Origin: a virus
Taxonomy: Duplodnaviria; Caudoviricetes
Virus record (IMG/VR): IMGVR_UViG_3300031655_000032
Location: 1-28,680 of that record
Strand: one strand, 5' to 3'
Length of the DNA stretch: 28,680 nt
The notes below the pieces were generated by a model. That model worked only from the letters and a program-made list of their open reading frames with translations, was not told where the DNA came from and did no database searches. The position numbers and the translations under genes are program-made. Below are positions 11,205 through 28,680 of the stretch, piece by piece (the first letter of the stretch is position 1; each line of letters starts with the position of its first letter).

Positions 11205-11870
11205 TTATTTGCCAAAGGAGAACGTCTTCCTAGCCCCGCCCGCTGGTTTAGGAGCTTTGGCGAACTGGTTAGTGCCTTTAAATCCTCCTGCGATGCTACT
11301 TGCACCACTAAAAAGTTGTGACCCCGCACTAAACGCAGCACTCTGTCCAGCTTGTTTAGCCTGTGCTCCAAACAATCCCGCCTGTGCGGTTTGGTTCTGA
11401 GCTTCTAATCCGAAGCCGGAAGTTCTTACTGCAAACTGGTTTCTCAAACGCAGAGCATTTAATTCATCTTCTCCAGCTATTTGATTTTGAATAGAGCTAA
11501 ACGACCCCTCATTAAGAAGCACTCCAGTAGCTCCTCCACTAGCAAAACGGGCTGCTAGTTCTCTACTGGCTTGGCGTCTGAAATCATCCTCGTCGATCTT
11601 AGCTTGCTGTTCTGATCTTACTTGGTCGCGTCGTGCCAGTTCGGCGTTCTGTCCAGCCACTTGGCCTTTAAATCTCGCATTACCCGCAGCACTCTGTCCC
11701 GCTGAAATAACACCTATGGTGCTGACAACAGTTCCTACCACAGCTATATTTGCAGCTATAGCTGCCGTCGTAAATCCCGCAGTAGCAAATGCACCGAAGC
11801 AGTAACAGTTACTGAATATAGTTTCGACCTCTGGACAAGGCCAGAAATCATTTAGATGTTTAGATTGCAT
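11205..11870 (-). CDS. Putative internal virion (ejection) protein 1, gp14-like
   Basis: Ala/Gly hydrophobic segment followed by an A/Q-rich coiled coil and ASGGATGVLLNEGS...ELNALRLR, typical of this slot in podoviruses. Confidence 0.7.
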   Translation of the reverse strand: MQSKHLNDFWPCPEVETIFSNCYCFGAFATAGFTTAAIAANIAVVGTVVSTIGVISAGQSAAGNARFKGQVAGQNAELARRDQVRSEQQAKIDEDDFRRQASRELAARFASGGATGVLLNEGSFSSIQNQIAGEDELNALRLRNQFAVRTSGFGLEAQNQTAQAGLFGAQAKQAGQSAAFSAGSQLFSGASSIAGGFKGTNQFAKAPKPAGGARKTFSFGK

Positions 11871-12507
11871 ATTGCTCCTGCCCCTCTTTAACGTATGTCA
11901 GTGCGGTGTCACCGAAGGACACTTCCTGTTCTAAGCACTGACGCTGAATATCTTTTTTCCATGCGGGATCGGCGGGTCTTTTATAACCCCACGTTTCTTC
12001 TTTTACACCTACCGCATCTATGCCACTTAAATCTAAGTCACTACTAAATGGCCCAAGAATAGGCACTATAGAAATGACTTTTGTTTTAGCTGGCATACGT
12101 CTCAACAAATCAATTCTCCACTCATACTTACCAGACTCGATAGGTACGGTGCATACGATGTTGTCTGACCATTTGAGGGATGAACTGTAGATCAGTGCTC
12201 GACCGATTCTTTTTGTCCCAACTGAAAAGGTGTGCCAGTCGGCTTTGTTCATCACTTCAAAAACTAATTTCTGAAAATTAAGCGTTACGTCCGCATGAAA
12301 TAAGTCCGAGCCAAAAGCCACTTCGTAGTGGGTTGGTTCGGAATTTAACAGCGGGATATCCAGTACTGTCGGGTGTTCTACGGGTTCGTAGCTTTTTCCT
12401 TCAGCTTCGTACTCCCAGTAGGACGGACAGCTATTACAACCTTCTGATACCCTGTGACATCCTGTGACGACAGGCCAGTTTGAAATTTGTGCGTTATCGT
12501 TATTCAT
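11860..12507 (-). CDS. Phage Gp37/Gp68 (DUF5131)-like protein, divergent
   Basis: TGCHRVSEGCNSC (CX6CX2C), SDLFH, TKR, RIDLLR, DLSGID, RP...W...C motifs. Start placed at ATG 12507 (ATGA overlap). Confidence 0.8.
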   Translation of the reverse strand: MNNDNAQISNWPVVTGCHRVSEGCNSCPSYWEYEAEGKSYEPVEHPTVLDIPLLNSEPTHYEVAFGSDLFHADVTLNFQKLVFEVMNKADWHTFSVGTKRIGRALIYSSSLKWSDNIVCTVPIESGKYEWRIDLLRRMPAKTKVISIVPILGPFSSDLDLSGIDAVGVKEETWGYKRPADPAWKKDIQRQCLEQEVSFGDTALTYVKEGQEQYAI

Positions 12508-12944
12508 ATTGCCCACACCGCCTTAATGTTAGGCTTATCGACGTAGACCAGCCCATTTGTGCCTTGGGCTATAGCCATCGTTTTATCGTACACAATCCCA
12601 GCGGTCAATCCATGTGCTTCCGGGTGCACATTTTCGACATCCATGAGCACCACGTCGCCCGAATTCGCGTCCCGCATAGAAACACGCTTACATCCCATAT
12701 CCACAAAAATCTGTTCCACAGTTTCTTCAACGCCACCACCTGAGAAGTTCTTTATGAGTTTAAACGCTTCTTTCATCGTACTGTACTTGCCCCTAAAAAA
12801 ATGGGCTGGATCTGATCCGTTTATGACTTGAACGGCATCAAATGCGAACAAACAACAGTCTGATTTTCCCCATGTAAAGGGGGTGTTGTGTCTTTTCTTT
12901 AGGAAGCCACTTAACCTATCAGGCCAGTCAATATATCTTAACAT
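12504..12944 (-). CDS. NlpC/P60-like (DUF6950-type) protein
   Basis: WPDRL...PFTWGKSDCCLFAFDAV...FRGKYST...GDVV...AGIV pattern. Confidence 0.75.
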   Translation of the reverse strand: MLRYIDWPDRLSGFLKKRHNTPFTWGKSDCCLFAFDAVQVINGSDPAHFFRGKYSTMKEAFKLIKNFSGGGVEETVEQIFVDMGCKRVSMRDANSGDVVLMDVENVHPEAHGLTAGIVYDKTMAIAQGTNGLVYVDKPNIKAVWAI

Positions 12945-22222: not shown

Positions 22223-22468
22223 TTATCCTAGTTTCGCAGAGGAAATACTACCCCCTCCAGTGTTGCCAAGTCCGTCTTCTGACGTTGAGGCTAGTTGAGA
22301 ACCCGTTCGTCCCCTTCGTCCAGCCGCAGTTATCTTACTTGCCTTCTTCACGTTCTGCTCCACGGGTGGAGGAGGCGGCGGAGGCGGCGGAGGCGGCGGA
22401 GGCGGGGGCGGTGGTGCTGCTGGTCGTGGAGGTGATCCTCCACCGGGAACTATGCACTTAAATTTCAT
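22223..22468 (-). CDS. Poly-proline pre-portal small virion protein
   Basis: Pro17 tract, RRGR motif and ..KLG end. Occupies the T7 gp6.7/7.3-like slot. Confidence 0.65.
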   Translation of the reverse strand: MKFKCIVPGGGSPPRPAAPPPPPPPPPPPPPPPPPVEQNVKKASKITAAGRRGRTGSQLASTSEDGLGNTGGGSISSAKLG

Positions 22469-22471
22469 AAC

Positions 22472-22711
22472 TTATCCTAGTGTAGTGTTGTCACTATCCC
22501 CAGACGCATCAGTATTTAATATACTTCCGCCGGATTGTGTATTTTGAGTTAGTATTGATCCTGATCGTCCTCTTCTCCTAGCCACGCTGGCCTTCAAGTC
22601 CCTTTTCGCGGTCTCAATAGCCGGGTCAGTTCGCTCCGGCGGAGGCGGCGGGGCGGGCGGTAAAGGCGGAGGCGCGGCTGGGGAACTACCAAAGCCGGGG
22701 AATATATTCAT
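22472..22711 (-). CDS. Pro-rich pre-portal small virion protein
   Basis: MNIFPG, Pro tract, RRRGRSGSILT and a TLG end. Confidence 0.7.
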   Translation of the reverse strand: MNIFPGFGSSPAAPPPLPPAPPPPPERTDPAIETAKRDLKASVARRRGRSGSILTQNTQSGGSILNTDASGDSDNTTLG

Positions 22712-23723: not shown

Positions 23724-24007
23724 TCTTGAAAATCCTGTGGTACGGAGAAGAACCTGTCTCCACGTTGAATGACTTTAAAGCCTCTTTTCAGTTCCGCATC
23801 TACCGCTAGTGGGAACGTCGGGTGTTTTGCACCTTTCAGAATCATGTAGCTGTCCTGCGGTAGCCCGAGGTCTTGCATCTGCTTTAAGCTAGTAGGAACT
23901 ACGGAACCCATGTGGCCCGTGTCATCCCGTTCCATGCCATGTCCTAAAGCTGAATCCATATCGAATCCTTCACCGGCTGGATTGAACTTTTTCTTCTTTG
24001 TTGCCAT
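23720..24007 (-). CDS. Hypothetical phage protein
   Basis: TAATG coupling to TerL. GHMGS...ILKGAKHPT motif. Confidence 0.6.
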   Translation of the reverse strand: MATKKKKFNPAGEGFDMDSALGHGMERDDTGHMGSVVPTSLKQMQDLGLPQDSYMILKGAKHPTFPLAVDAELKRGFKVIQRGDRFFSVPQDFQE

Positions 24008-25599
24008 TACCGTCTCCAGTTTCTATGTGGGTTGTACCGAGAGTTAGTCCGTTTGGGCGAACTATTGAATCGGCCTACTTTATTCTTAGCTGGAATCAGT
24101 GCGTACACCGCAGCGTCACCTTTTCCGGGTGATCTGCCAATGCGTTTCTTTAAGTCACCAAATCCGTCTTTACATTCTGTCGATTTACCCTCGACTTGGA
24201 TACCACGACTGGTTAACTGCCACTTCGGTGCCGAAAGATCAACCTTCAACTCTCTATCAGGCCATAATGCGATTGCGTTCGGGTTGTCTGGGTTCAACGC
24301 TTCTCTCATACGCCACCACAGCATACTACGAGTGTTAAAAAACCCTAATGTGCCCGATGAGTCCCGCTCGTGGCTCTCCTTACGTCCGTCCACTGAGTAC
24401 ACGTTAGCGCCGTTTGTTCTGAGATGGTCTAGTATACTAGCACCTGCTCCACCAATGATGTCTAACATCATCTGAGCGCCGTCTCGTACATATGTAGTAC
24501 AGATAGCTGCTCCAGTAGGGCCGTCCGGTGTACTGGCACCCTTTAAGACGATCTGAGGGCCGAACCAATTCCCGTATCGTGGGCTTAAAACAAAATCATC
24601 TTTACCACCCCGTGCCGGGTCAACCCCCAGAGCGTCCATCTTAACTCCTTGAGGCTTCTCATCTGTCCAACGGGCTTGTGCCAACTCGATCCAAGCAGTT
24701 GGTATGACCTGCCACGGATCGTCTTGGACGCCAGCAGTAAAGTCACCCATCAACATCTGGCTACGAAGCGGTTCTGGTAGTGCTTGTAGAGCGGCTTTGT
24801 AGCCGGAGTTGATTAGAAAAGGGTTGTCGTCAACCGATGAGGGTATAAATGTGCGTGATCTGGGTTGCACCCAGTCTTCGTCTTGCCATATGGGTTCACA
24901 AGTTGGGACTTCCACGTCGTTACCGTCGATGTCGCTGATGAACCACCTAAGCTCACCCGGTCGTGCTGGATTAGGATGCTCCCTGTCGAGCCAAGGTGCC
25001 CAGTAGTCAACAACCCACTGTCCTTCGGCTGAAGTGGGTGGGTTGGTCGCGCACACAATCCTACATCTTTGATTCGAATCTGCTGCTCTATTCCATGTAG
25101 TAACATAGCGAAATTGGCTCTCCAAGAACTGCGTTAATTCATCGAAACATATGAGGTCACGGGGATCACCCTGATATGCGACCTCATCTCCTGAATACTG
25201 CATACCCCCAAGACGTATAGCCCTTCCCTTACCCAGATCAAAGCGATGTAATTGCCCATTAAAGCCCACCCTCGTTTTTCGTATTCTAATAATCTCTTCT
25301 TCTATTGGCCCAAGCTGTTTCACTTCTCGCCTATAGATTACAGATTTAGTGTGAGCGGTTAGGGCCAGCCCAATCATTAATGACGACTTACCACCGCCAG
25401 CCGCACCCCCGAATAGTAAAATATCGGCAGGGGAATCATACGCCTGTTTCTGCGGTGTAATTTGCTCTGGCTCTTTTGTATTAATAAGAGGACGCCACGG
25501 TACGTCAGTGGCATCTTCCAGAAGCATTTTGTCTATTTCTGCTTTTTCTGCTGGGGGCAGGTTATTATACTGCTCCAGTAGGGCATCTAAACTCGTCAT
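24007..25599 (-). CDS. terL: Terminase large subunit
   Basis: Walker A GGAAGGGKS, Walker B ICFDE, coupling motif ATNP, nuclease GVDPARGG.D and GRSP..GDA. Start placed at MTSLDAL (AAAGG upstream). Confidence 0.95.
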   Translation of the reverse strand: MTSLDALLEQYNNLPPAEKAEIDKMLLEDATDVPWRPLINTKEPEQITPQKQAYDSPADILLFGGAAGGGKSSLMIGLALTAHTKSVIYRREVKQLGPIEEEIIRIRKTRVGFNGQLHRFDLGKGRAIRLGGMQYSGDEVAYQGDPRDLICFDELTQFLESQFRYVTTWNRAADSNQRCRIVCATNPPTSAEGQWVVDYWAPWLDREHPNPARPGELRWFISDIDGNDVEVPTCEPIWQDEDWVQPRSRTFIPSSVDDNPFLINSGYKAALQALPEPLRSQMLMGDFTAGVQDDPWQVIPTAWIELAQARWTDEKPQGVKMDALGVDPARGGKDDFVLSPRYGNWFGPQIVLKGASTPDGPTGAAICTTYVRDGAQMMLDIIGGAGASILDHLRTNGANVYSVDGRKESHERDSSGTLGFFNTRSMLWWRMREALNPDNPNAIALWPDRELKVDLSAPKWQLTSRGIQVEGKSTECKDGFGDLKKRIGRSPGKGDAAVYALIPAKNKVGRFNSSPKRTNSRYNPHRNWRR

Positions 25600-25607
25600 G
25601 GTCGCCT

Positions 25608-25784
25608 TTAGTAATTTGGTTCGCTCTTCTTTACTTCCATATAGCATCCCGCGAGAGCGTTCTGCTGGTCAGTGTTAAAAGCAATAGCCTCGTTAAGACA
25701 GTCGTCAATAGTTCCGTTGTATATGTTCTTCTCGCCTTGCAATGTAAAAATATTCATTATCCACAGGATGACTATGAGTTTCAT
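25608..25784 (-). CDS. 58-aa protein with hydrophobic N-terminus (not in ORF track)
   Basis: MKLIVILWIMNIFTLQGEKNIYNGTIDDCLNEAIAFNTDQQNALAGCYMEVKKSEPNY. ATGA overlap with the TerS stop. Confidence 0.6.
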   Translation of the reverse strand: MKLIVILWIMNIFTLQGEKNIYNGTIDDCLNEAIAFNTDQQNALAGCYMEVKKSEPNY

Positions 25785-26320
25785 TCTTCTACCGGCTCCT
25801 CACCGTATACAACTGTAACAGGATCGACTTTGTTGGTAGGCTTCATGCCTTTAGCTCTCATCAACACTGACAACATACGTTGCTCCTTGTCTGTGTCGGT
25901 TAAGTTAACTAGGCTCTTGCCATTAGCCCCTGTGAGTTCGAGACGATCTGCCTCTCTCCACCCAGCTTGGGACTTCAACCAAAAGATCATGGCAGGTACG
26001 TTCCCTTCCATAGCCTTACCATACAAGGCACCGGACACTCGCGTGTTAGCCCTCATCTTCCCATAGTCGAGTTCGGATTTGAAATACTTATTTAGGATCT
26101 TCATCGAGACGCCCAGAGACTCAGCTTGGTGCATCGGCTTGATACCATTGGCAGACATCATAACGACGTCTTCCCGCTGGATGTCTGTTGGGACAAAAGC
26201 CGGTGTTCCTCCATGCGTATTATTCTTAGCCCCTTTGGGCCTACCAGCTTTTCTCTTGGAGGGAAATGCCGCATCAATTTTGGCTTGCTCTTTTTCCGAA
26301 GGTATTTTTCTGAAACTCAT
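25781..26320 (-). CDS. terS: Terminase small subunit-like protein
   Basis: GRPKG, HTH-like segment, L.KYF..ELD.G, LY.KAM.GNV.AMIFWLK...GWRE and ELTGANG. Lies upstream of TerL. Start re-called at MSFRK. Confidence 0.8.
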   Translation of the reverse strand: MSFRKIPSEKEQAKIDAAFPSKRKAGRPKGAKNNTHGGTPAFVPTDIQREDVVMMSANGIKPMHQAESLGVSMKILNKYFKSELDYGKMRANTRVSGALYGKAMEGNVPAMIFWLKSQAGWREADRLELTGANGKSLVNLTDTDKEQRMLSVLMRAKGMKPTNKVDPVTVVYGEEPVEE

Positions 26321-26321
26321 G

Positions 26322-26543
26322 TTATTTTTTATTCTTATTTTGGTTTCTAACTTGCTTCCGGCGCATAGCATTAACCAATTTGCGTTCTGCTGCTTTCGTG
26401 TTTTCGTTTCTAGGCTCATCCCTTTCAAATATCCCACCCTGCCTTACAAAACGTGGGCCAGAGCCGGGGGCTGTTCTTCTGTCGCGTTCAACACTCGTGT
26501 CGTGCAGAGATTTTATCCATTTTCCTGTTGGCGTTTTAGGCAT
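26322..26543 (-). CDS. Small basic hypothetical protein
   Basis: Start MPKTP with an AGGTGG RBS. Fills the gap between neighbours. Confidence 0.55.
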   Translation of the reverse strand: MPKTPTGKWIKSLHDTSVERDRRTAPGSGPRFVRQGGIFERDEPRNENTKAAERKLVNAMRRKQVRNQNKNKK

Positions 26544-26545
26544 AT

Positions 26546-27184
26546 CTATATCCACCTTTCAAATTTTTGTTCATCCGGCCCTAGTATACCATACCTTTCA
26601 TGGTACTTTATAAAAATAGCGCCAAAACGGACGGGTTGTGATTGGAACTTCCGTAGTGCGGAACCTTCGGGAATAGTAATTTTGATACCACGGCCCTCCG
26701 CCAGTCCCAGTAAATACTCAGTGCAAGCCCGTTGATAGTCCCACTCCTCATCTGGCATTAAGTCCACGCCGTAAAGAGCTATCTCATCTGGTTCCATGCT
26801 AATGGCGTGGGAGAGCATGTACGTTATAGATGATATGAAATAATCACGGGTCTTTTGGATGACTTTTTCAAACGGATACTGTAGTACACCACCCCAGTAC
26901 GCTTCTTGCATATAAAGCGTTTTGTTTGGGTCTTCTGAAATCTTTTTCAGAGTCTTCCAGTAATTCTGAGGTCGGTGTGCTTGAGTTTTAATGTGATCAC
27001 CTGCCCACGACTCCGTTAGGATAAGCGGGGAGGATAATTCAAGAACGTTCTTTTCGTGCATCTCGTACAGTCGATCATATTTCTCCCACTTATCATCCCA
27101 CGGTAGGCCAAACTTTGTCCACTCGGGATCGTAGAGAGGAGCTTCATCATTTGTAGGGCCAAAGCCCATTACACATATCTTCAT
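26546..27184 (-). CDS. Sialyltransferase/Maf-like (CstII-type fold) protein
   Basis: MKICVMGFGPT and SSITYMLSHAISMEPDEIALYGVD resemble the GxGPS and TSG.YM...A...G.KEI.L.G.D motifs of CstII/Maf-type transferases. GGGAG RBS. Confidence 0.6.
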   Translation of the reverse strand: MKICVMGFGPTNDEAPLYDPEWTKFGLPWDDKWEKYDRLYEMHEKNVLELSSPLILTESWAGDHIKTQAHRPQNYWKTLKKISEDPNKTLYMQEAYWGGVLQYPFEKVIQKTRDYFISSITYMLSHAISMEPDEIALYGVDLMPDEEWDYQRACTEYLLGLAEGRGIKITIPEGSALRKFQSQPVRFGAIFIKYHERYGILGPDEQKFERWI

Positions 27185-27213
27185 GCCTTTTCTCCCTTTG
27201 TATTATTAAAAAG

Positions 27214-27242
27214 ATCCTATATAAACAAGCCCGTTTTGTCAA
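27214..27242 (-). promoter_or_regulatory. sigma70-type promoter heading the packaging/structural operon
   Basis: Minus strand TTGACA-17 bp-TAGGAT, ~30 bp upstream of ATG 27184. Confidence 0.7.
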
Positions 27243-27480
27243 CTCAGTATTTTCAATCCGCAATAGTATTAAAGACGTTGAGTTTTTCAAATTTTGAAAA
27301 ATTTCGTGTATAACCGATTGTGATCCCGGTGGGGGCGGTGGGCTTGGGGGGTGGGGTCGCGTTTGGCATGAATCTTGCATCAGTTTGAAGGCATGAATCT
27401 TGCACTTGCAAGAATGGTGCCAAACTAATTCAGTTCATCGCGCTCAAATGGCACGGAACTTGCTTACAAATGAAGTGAAT

Positions 27481-27642
27481 TAAATGGTACAGCTTTGCTT
27501 GCAAGAATCGTGCCAAAGTCAGGCTCATTTGTAAATTAGTTTGGCACGGTTCTTGCATAACTAAATGGCACGGCTTCGCTTGCAAGAATCGTGCCAAACG
27601 CGAGCATATTTGTAAATTAGTTTGGCACGGTTATTGCATAAC
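27481..27642. repeat. Two imperfect 81-bp tandem repeats
   Basis: 27481-27561 versus 27562-27642. Each carries an N9-spaced box, a minus-strand box and a plus-strand box. Confidence 0.9.
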
Positions 27643-27646
27643 TAAA

Positions 27647-27694
27647 ATGCCTCATTATGAGGCGTTTTCATTATGCCTCATTATGAGGCGTTTT
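27647..27694. repeat. Duplicated 22-bp unit containing a perfect 7-1-7 dyad
   Basis: ATGCCTCATTATGAGGCGTTTT at 27647-27668 and 27673-27694. Confidence 0.9.
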
Positions 27695-28065
27695 GTGTTT
27701 GTGAGTTTAAACCAGAACTTTTTCAGTTATGCAACTATCATACCAAAATGTATGAAAATATTTCGGCATGATAGTTGCATACTGTGGCAGATATGCAGGA
27801 TTCGTGCCAAACCCTTTTGATATAATGGCTTGCAAGATCAGTGCCAAAGTGATTTTGAGGATTTTAGGTCATTAGGATGGCTGTGTCTTTCTGTAGTACC
27901 GTTTGATTTACCCTTTCCACTGGTATCAATAAAGATAAACAAGCGATTCTAAAGGGGTTCTAGCACGTCAACTTTGTGTCACTTTTCTATACAGTCCAAA
28001 CGGTAGTGTATACTTTTATGCTCTTTTATCTGCTTTGCGTATCTAAAATAAATTGTCGATTTTCC

Positions 28066-28093
28066 TTGATTTTGTCAAGTTCTTCTATATAAT
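28066..28093 (+). promoter_or_regulatory. sigma70-type promoter for the rightward block
   Basis: TTGATT-16 bp-TATAAT, followed by an AAGGA RBS and ATG 28129. Confidence 0.6.
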
Positions 28094-28128
28094 AAAGGTA
28101 GTTAATAACTATATAAGGAACTAACCCA

Positions 28129-28680
28129 ATGAAAACCGCACAAAAGCTAAACGACTACTTTAAACTCAAACCCACAGGTTCTAAGTTTGTATACCTCACT
28201 AAGAACAAACCGGCTTTTCAGGCTTGTGACTTGTCAAAAGCAACTGAAGCCACAGAACAGGCTTTTCACTTCTTAAATGAAGCTCTTTTTGATGGTAAGA
28301 TTGAACCTGTTGTAATTACTCTACAATCTTCCAAGGGGTCATACGGGCATTGTACAGTTAACAAAATTTGGGATGATGGCACCCAAAACCACTCGAAACG
28401 TGAAATCAACCTTTCAGTCGATTATCTAAGTATTGACCCTTTCCACTTTTTGGGGACTCTTATTCATGAAATGGTACATTCCAGAAATTTAGATCTGGGA
28501 GTTCGGGACTGTGATTCGAGCACCCAATATCACAATAAGAATTTCAAAACACTTGCGGAATCGGTTGGGTTGATTGTCACTAAGATGGGTAATTATGGGT
28601 TTGCTCATACGCAAGTTGCGATGAATAATTTAGACGGGATTGATCCAGTGGCGGAACAAGCCATTGCCGAATTGATTCTA
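28129..28680 (+). CDS. SprT-like zinc metalloprotease domain protein (runs off right edge)
   Basis: Translated by hand: AFHFLNEALFDG...EINLS...TLIHEMVH...YHNKNFK..AE.VGL. HExxH plus a downstream His. Confidence 0.8.
   Translation, partial: MKTAQKLNDYFKLKPTGSKFVYLTKNKPAFQACDLSKATEATEQAFHFLNEALFDGKIEPVVITLQSSKGSYGHCTVNKIWDDGTQNHSKREINLSVDYLSIDPFHFLGTLIHEMVHSRNLDLGVRDCDSSTQYHNKNFKTLAESVGLIVTKMGNYGFAHTQVAMNNLDGIDPVAEQAIAELIL

Follow-up and report, generated by a model that had tools for sequence, protein, structure and literature searches.

The closest described counterparts of the element reported here are bacterial sigma54 promoters and sites, with which it shares the consensus and the GG-N10-GC spacing (PMC4591121, PMC4551910). 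Sigma54 is described as sitting on its sites without being transcriptionally active (PMC4591121, PMC4551910), E. coli is credited with 135 mapped and more than 250 estimated sites, many of the known ones not being canonical promoters, intragenic sites there are reported without a visible roadblock effect (PMC4591121), and overlapping sigma70 promoters can be repressed by sigma54 (PMC4551910). Among phages, Pseudomonas phage YuA is reported to carry a sigma54-like promoter (bioRxiv 2023.10.13.562163), and the only host-box clusters known at phage ends are those for CtrA, read as regulation, and those for DnaA, for which the model is in silico. The CtrA sites of LPEG phages (vB_BsubS-Delta, phiCbK) show binding in EMSA, and phage promoters are repressed or activated through them; they lie in terminal repeats or, at the terminase end, in the space that separates divergent modules, and are described as turning over fast and as having independent origins (PMC9437464). 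The injection-stop array of T5-like phages is a non-coding cluster of DnaA boxes in first-entering DNA to which a physical role in entry has been ascribed; this model is in silico only and makes no mention of sigma factors (bioRxiv 10.1101/866236). In the injection-stop region of T5 itself we find DnaA, LexA-like and Fur-like sites. Short-repeat arrays (SRL/SRR) stand beside the terminal repeats of T7, IHF assists at the packaging site cos of lambda, and packaging boxes bound by TerS are known from SPP1 (pac) and lambda (R sites); the T7 and lambda cos/IHF elements resemble the present one as repeats beside a packaging end and differ in not being sigma54 sites. Our literature search, which covered subscription journals thinly, found no published account of phage arrays of sigma54 boxes, nor of a terminal slot in which motifs are exchanged.

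The window, by which we mean the whole stretch of DNA analysed, is an entire virus record of 28,680 bp that is about 59% complete; its minus strand carries a podovirus-type structural block, including portal (PF12236) and capsid (PF19821) genes, and an array of sigma54-type boxes occupies the non-coding gap between this block and a divergent early block (Table 1). Window DNA, or part of it, is contained in 20 public runs from 14 studies, those with a habitat label being all marine or seawater, and contig X10 from another study covers 25700-28153 without any difference, which shows that the array did not arise in assembly. Within two mismatches of TGGCACG-N4-TTGCW there are 12 boxes, five perfect and nine within one mismatch, and the rest of the window holds none; 1000 dinucleotide shuffles of the intergenic region gave a mean of 0.07 boxes and a maximum of 2, and shuffles of the whole window a mean of 2.2, with 0 of 100 reaching the observed 12. 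The first-pass annotation is thereby reproduced where it had described 12 exactly spaced boxes, six per strand, in about 480 bp, and the five boxes that it quoted, together with its N9 variants at 27485 and 27566, all lie where it had placed them; counting these two, 12 of 14 boxes keep the exact GG-N10-GC spacing. It had further observed that no box adjoins a start codon, and indeed the gene-facing boxes closest to one stand 223 bp (27407, minus strand) and 350 bp (27764, plus strand) away with opposing boxes intervening in both cases, so a single box productively placed before a gene is not found in the window. Both sigma70-type promoters that it had assigned to the flanking operons were found again in our scan; their standing is less secure, as the six sigma70-like sites found are not above chance (4.3 +/- 1.8 in shuffles), and neither of the two is overlapped by a box.

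Table 1. Features of the window around the box array (coordinates on the 28,680-bp window).
Feature	Coordinates	Strand	Remark
Terminase large subunit (terL)	24007..25647	-	phrog_979; PF03237 under cut-off
Terminase small subunit (terS)	25781..26437	-	phrog_309
212-aa ORF, function unassigned, opens late block	26546..27184	-	homologues in L001, L015, L017, L029
Sigma70-like promoter match before late block	27214..27242	-	promoter scan
A/T tract ahead of landmark	27283..27308		in relatives too
G-rich landmark, conserved across family, immediately ahead of array slot	27330..27357	+	comparison of relatives
Sigma54-type -24/-12 box array, order ++-+-+-+-+--	27364..27846	both	start-to-start 18-51 bp, one gap of 107 bp
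Box 1, 1 mismatch	27364..27379	+	7 bp past landmark
Box 2, 2 mismatches	27389..27404	+	25-bp duplicate of box 1
Box 3, 1 mismatch	27407..27422	-	faces box 2 head-to-head, gap 2 bp
Box 4, perfect	27449..27464	+	consensus scan
81-bp tandem duplication, 2 copies	27478..27639		86% identical
Apparent decayed box, GG-N9-GC	27485..27499	+	spacing intact in relative L262
Box 5, perfect	27500..27515	-	consensus scan
Box 6, perfect	27542..27557	+	consensus scan
Apparent decayed box, GG-N9-GC	27566..27580	+	copy of 27485 box
Box 7, perfect	27581..27596	-	consensus scan
Box 8, perfect	27623..27638	+	consensus scan
Two copies of 15-bp palindrome GCCTCA-N3-TGAGGC, 26 bp apart	27649..27689		similar pair in L029
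Box 9, 2 mismatches	27730..27745	-	inverted duplicate of box 10
Box 10, 2 mismatches	27764..27779	+	consensus scan
Box 11, 1 mismatch	27794..27809	-	consensus scan
Box 12, 1 mismatch	27831..27846	-	consensus scan
Sigma70-like promoter match before early block	28066..28093	+	promoter scan
SprT-like ORF, opens divergent early block	28129..28680	+	267 aa in L260

From bacterial sigma54 sites the array differs in that 12 boxes, on both strands, crowd into 480 bp, with neighbours often too near each other to be occupied at once, and in that a three-box cluster is nearly absent from 185,579 cellular genomes. With the CtrA clusters it shares its location in the terminase-end gap that separates divergent modules; it differs in its factor, in the promoter regulation demonstrated for CtrA, and in a factor exchange among relatives that the cited account does not describe (PMC9437464). 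The window gap holds 0 CtrA sites of the form TTAA-N7-TTAA and, from 27185 to 28128, 0 DnaA boxes, and its podovirus-type genome likewise sets it apart from the T5-like array. YuA resembles the window as a phage using host sigma54, with the difference that one productive promoter serves it and its record has no array (0 perfect boxes). The window element thus resembles the CtrA and DnaA clusters at phage ends and belongs to neither, the swappable slot described below being the new part.

The array has grown by duplication, and its cores have been kept. The two 81-bp copies differ at 11 positions, 0 of which fall in the cores of the two intact boxes (24 positions). This unit is single-copy in the relative L262, where the box corresponding to 27485 keeps intact spacing; the N9 box at 27485 is a decayed copy. 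The spacer is common to both members in three box pairs of the window. Among the strain differences listed inside boxes, eight fall in the 4-bp spacer, four change the core towards the consensus and three away from it, and GG and GC are untouched. Where the first-pass annotation had seen selection rather than duplication, the part about selection therefore stands and the exclusion of duplication does not, the 81-bp unit being present twice; the choice is a false one, as the array grows by duplication and selection maintains the cores.

The element is best understood against its relatives, which were collected by terL and by a TerS profile. Throughout this family the place of the array is fixed: it mostly begins right after the G-rich landmark, upstream of terS, and the motif that fills this slot varies by relative. 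A strict landmark pattern is present in 29 of the 29 chosen family loci; a looser one gave spurious first matches in L276, L308, L310, L324, L355 and the L015 group and no match in 16 of 65, and a scan with the landmark pattern returned L029's contig and one unrelated match inside a gene. Sigma54 boxes fill the slot in the window, L262 (7 in 220 bp), L267/L268 (14) and L029 (5), TTGAC-type repeats in L001, L018 and L019 (15-18), TTGGCA/TTAA dyads in L006, L007, L291 and L305, a mixture in L294-L296, and other short repeats in L015, L277 and L301. A CtrA label for the TTAA-rich arrays of the L006 type was dropped, N7 spacing being no commoner there than N6. ModE-like sites stand in the slot of L278 (4) and L282 (5) at exact N6 spacing, with none at N5 or N7 and fewer than 0.1 in shuffles; they are tandem copies and were scored against the E. 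coli ModE consensus as quoted in PMC545781. The tandem 32-bp repeats in the slot of L278, L282 and L344 fit that consensus and would represent an array of molybdate-regulator sites in a phage. In L311-L313, L351, L363 and L020 the slot shows no obvious array, so that some phages of the family can do without one. On a TerS tree of 36 rows, whose long branches leave the deep joins unsure, the motif label undergoes 12 or more changes, where the minimum is 9 and shuffled labels give 23.6, a clustering for which near-copies alone suffice.

A lone sigma54 box is found at the early promoter in 10 of the 29 chosen loci, about five lineages, and nine of the ten have no sigma54 array. In these loci (L015, L018, L019, L020, L029, L271, L284, L286, L287, L289) the box lies 470-720 bp past the landmark with a TATA-like element directly after it; its -24 half could serve as the sigma70 -35 hexamer for the TATA-like element lying 16-17 bp further on, which would make it a possible dual promoter. 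The hosts of these relatives probably have sigma54, as far as can be told from such boxes, and the motif swap is therefore not forced by its absence. Because the lone box occurs independently of the array, a promoter role is separable from the array. In a further relative (L392) a lone perfect box, G001:C1:35023-35038, lies about 75 bp before an amidase gene heading a lysis/replication block and may be a real promoter.

Arrays of this kind are not confined to the window's family. An alternating three-box pattern occurs in 74 viral stretches that form 31 groups with 3-15 boxes each; the same pattern in the 185,579 cellular genomes (GTDB) gave three MAG contigs only, of 503, 1351 and 8722 bp. 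Two cellular-bin contigs, L167 (1351 bp, Gemmatimonadaceae bin) with 10 boxes and L168 (Deltaproteobacteria bin) with 4, may be mis-binned phage pieces or hints to the host. A head-to-head pair pattern was found in about 220 viral stretches, 120 of them among the matches listed, and in 0 when the spacer of the pattern was made one base longer; three co-oriented boxes occur in about 200. Near the arrays 180 of 199 -24 half-sites have a -12 element at the exact spacing, a count that is partly fixed by selection since the pattern itself chose three boxes per array. Neighbouring boxes are tightly packed, 131 of 174 starting at most 30 bp apart and 68 of 81 head-to-head gaps measuring 1-5 bp, and in the records that were searched whole, perfect boxes are nearly confined to the cluster. 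Near arrays IHF-type sites show a 5.6-fold enrichment (9 of 31 groups), and LexA, NtrC, FNR, MatP, parS-like and -35 motifs show none. DnaA boxes stand among sigma54 boxes in L039 and L073, and Fur-like repeats beside a sigma54 array at L186:3790-3900. In BLASTN the matches of the L039 array came mostly from its DnaA boxes and not from sigma54 boxes, those of the window array against cultured phages (one) and of the L084 array (four, short) were chance matches, and the L267 array had none among plasmids. Two sigma54-array phages carry PurZ-like adenylosuccinate-synthetase genes (phrog_1211; L171:577-1656 and L185:10983-12059); should 2-aminoadenine be present in their DNA, the boxes may be recognized differently.

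The arrangement of the boxes indicates that they are read as duplex sites. Spacers of adjacent head-to-head boxes are alike at 0.85 of 4 positions (n=81) as against 1.33 between different arrays (p = 4e-6; 25 of 29 groups), and since adjacent inverted boxes thus avoid spacer complementarity, a hairpin is disfavoured. It is very improbable that the element works by folding into a hairpin or cruciform, or that its repeats have simply expanded neutrally. The region does fold far better than shuffles (z = -11), it contains long inverted repeats and its duplications are recent; inverted boxes alone produce such folding, however, and neither the avoided complementarity nor the conservation of cores while spacers vary agrees with this reading. 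An Rfam scan gave 13 weak matches, all far under the gathering score. The first-pass annotation's view that the boxes fit the sigma54 consensus with exact spacing and behave as protein-read sites is supported.

As the boxes appear to be duplex sites, and as no phage PF04552 domain is present in the records searched, host sigma54 is their likely reader. The sigma54 DNA-binding domain PF04552 has no match in 23 array-bearing records or the window, and those 23 records yielded no sigma54 activator gene over the cut-off (completeness reaches 90% or more in 8 of the 23). Reading by a phage protein, TerS or an RpoN-box mimic, with boxes that came to resemble sigma54 sites by convergence, has in its favour that terS is adjacent and that motif labels cluster on the TerS tree to the extent given above. 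The TerS proteins of L301 and of L006/L291/L305 are nonetheless 92-94% identical and have the same predicted recognition helix beside unrelated arrays, whereas the window and L029 both have sigma54 arrays with TerS proteins that are 62% identical and have different predicted helices; the same helix with different arrays, and the reverse, imply that box sequence is not set by TerS. Sigma54-type arrays are moreover found next to several terminase families. Binding by TerS, which the first-pass annotation had named as an outcome that would speak against sigma54, is thus unlikely on this comparison of helices, and we give a phage reader of any kind very little credence.

The arrays recur in a particular setting, a point that the first-pass annotation had proposed to check in related phages: terL lies 0.2-3.9 kb from the array in 20 of 31 groups, unrelated phages among them, and points away from it in 20 of 20. 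In the 11 groups without terL, six contigs extend less than 1.1 kb on one side and one 2.4 kb, and four have full 6-kb flanks, one of these being a provirus record. A link to a genome end, proposed earlier for the window, is the best reading. The landmark is presumably a packaging or terminal signal, and by analogy with cultured phages the landmark and array may mark a genome end, while gene layout and the same cultured analogues suggest that the array lies in first-entering terminal DNA. Contigs pass through the landmark unbroken, though contigs cannot reveal physical ends. In 13 of 45 contigs, where 4.0 would be expected, the array lies less than 1 kb from an end, an excess that we did not count because repeats break assemblies. 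A shared G-strand polarity beside arrays was rejected outside the window's family, where it stands at 10 versus 10. In G008 and G017 the array is repeated at both contig ends with 90-94% identity, which may be strain overlap.

We propose a model for the array that we regard as the best single explanation, at a probability of roughly 40%, in which the non-coding array serves as a docking pad where a bound host protein would hold the first-entering genome end or shield it. Host sigma54, whether by itself or within a polymerase complex that does not fire, would coat the end predicted to enter first, and the coated end would be kept in the cell, or shielded from exonucleases, until early proteins have been made. 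Sigma54 would suit such a function because it is bound in a transcriptionally inactive state, and occupancy rather than control of one regulon is favoured because motifs exchange and the geometry is non-productive. We infer all four premises of this model, namely sigma54 binding, the landmark as a physical end, entry of this end first, and occupancy over transcription. Several findings count against it: the landmark is not tied to contig breaks, 11 of 31 groups have no terL, some slots hold no obvious array, no sigma54 array is present in 19 cultured records, G-run polarity is even outside the family, and the only tested analogue, the CtrA clusters, acts on transcription (PMC9437464). RecBCD is reported to push RNA polymerase off DNA, which weakens the shielding step. 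A wider version, on which we would not rely and which we consider doubtful, holds that an exchangeable cassette for host proteins is found at the leading end in many tailed phages, that here a non-firing sigma54-polymerase clamp or ratchet captures and protects incoming DNA, and that having a tight binder in the host matters more than its identity.

The main rival, a reading we hold possible although we think it unlikely on the whole, is that some boxes are activator-dependent promoters, or repress sigma70 promoters, and so time early or late expression to the state of the host; it and the docking of a host protein are not mutually exclusive. The CtrA clusters in terminal repeats and gaps bind and regulate phage promoters (PMC9437464), sigma54 is able to repress overlapping sigma70 promoters (PMC4551910), and YuA provides a sigma54-like promoter in a phage (bioRxiv 2023.10.13.562163). 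To these may be added the enriched IHF-type sites, the lone box of relatives that overlaps the TATA-like element of an early promoter, the perfect box ahead of the amidase gene in G001, and the palindrome pair of the window, which has a similar counterpart in L029, stands about 100 bp away from boxes 7 and 10, and may be an activator site, such sites being sought 80-150 bp upstream of a box, or a terminator-like hairpin. That pair is, however, absent near all 31 other array groups, most boxes face each other at gaps of a few bp, no window box overlaps either of the two sigma70-like promoter matches or adjoins a start codon, and the 23 array-bearing records hold no activator gene over the cut-off.

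Two further functions are less probable. An aid to packaging, in which the terminase cut site on the concatemer is marked or bent by a host protein bound there or by a stalled polymerase, much as IHF does at lambda cos, would account for the fixed place upstream of terS and terL in one orientation (20 of 20) and for the conserved landmark and A/T tract that adjoin the array; we nevertheless judge it improbable, as one protein would need to be replaceable by another with TerS still 92-94% identical, the array sits on the side of the landmark that faces the early genes, and some relatives lack an array. The first-pass annotation had placed first a titration of host RpoN, in which the array soaks up sigma54-polymerase and damps host sigma54 programmes. 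High-consensus sites in a non-productive geometry fit such a decoy, their near absence from cellular genomes, three short MAG contigs apart, fits a cost to cells, and replication would multiply the sites. It is weakened by the exchange of the slot motif in relatives that keep a sigma54 promoter-like box and by the number of sites already present in E. coli (PMC4591121), and a decoy needs no fixed place. The sigma54 holoenzyme has a footprint of more than 30 bp, and tight packing would then let it fill only part of the 12 boxes. We therefore rate a sigma54-specific decoy as improbable too. A roadblock between the divergent blocks, also suggested earlier, loses ground with the report that intragenic sigma54 sites showed no such effect (PMC4591121).

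How phages without an entry motor of their own complete DNA transfer and keep the free end alive is a long-standing question, and one family that fills one slot with sigma54, ModE-like or other motifs amounts to a natural swap experiment: if unrelated binders are interchangeable, the function would be physical. If the boxes instead gate transcription, the sensing of host state by lytic phages would extend to sigma54 programmes. The slot motif could also help to predict the hosts of uncultured phages.

Cultured phages offer partial parallels at their ends. The most sigma54 boxes among the 19 cultured records, two perfect ones, are in the injection-stop gap of the T5-like Vibrio phage KIT04 (L244:5950-6820), where Fur-like, sigma54, LexA-like and DnaA sites lie within 400 bp, T5 having the same set minus sigma54. 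Kp7 (L242:1-225) and phiEap-1 (L243:1-180) have five DnaA boxes each in the first 225 bp beside G/C runs, and Arthrobacter phage Tiff81 (L241:1940-2031) has three in its last 100 bp, also beside G/C runs. The annotated terminal repeat of ICBM1 begins with a C run followed by short repeats, that of LUZ24 is rich in G/C runs, and a 14-bp motif occurs eight times towards the right end of CRP-6; the Roseobacter-group phages CRP-6 (L254:4510-4735) and ICBM1 (L259:50-180) carry arrays of TGCA-N4-TGTCAC-type motifs at their ends. The best cultured terL match to the window reaches 46% identity, no close cultured or prophage relative of the window phage was found, and the divergent layout with its array is absent from the cultured terL relatives AP1, BPP-1, DC33, SR18, 4316 and MD04.

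Among uncultured relatives, the 53-kb contig L260 has a TerS identical to that of the window and makes more small early genes visible, the early block being only partly contained in the window. The look-alikes of the 212-aa ORF that opens the late block are exclusively viral and without names. Directly upstream of the portal gene (22223-22711), as in L001 and L013, lie two small ORFs with long proline runs, and within the tail and internal-virion block is a DUF5131 gene (11860-12516), which we take to be of the radical-SAM-like Gp37/Gp68 family. In L029 and L276 no long ORF occupies the roughly 3 kb that separate an HNH gene from the homologue of the 212-aa ORF (3500-6500 in L029 coordinates), a stretch that by eye resembles a tRNA cluster. 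Finally, in the relative G001 (C1:40700-49200, L392) genes for PRPP synthetase-like, NAMPT, RtcB and RNA ligase proteins stand next to that of a family A polymerase.
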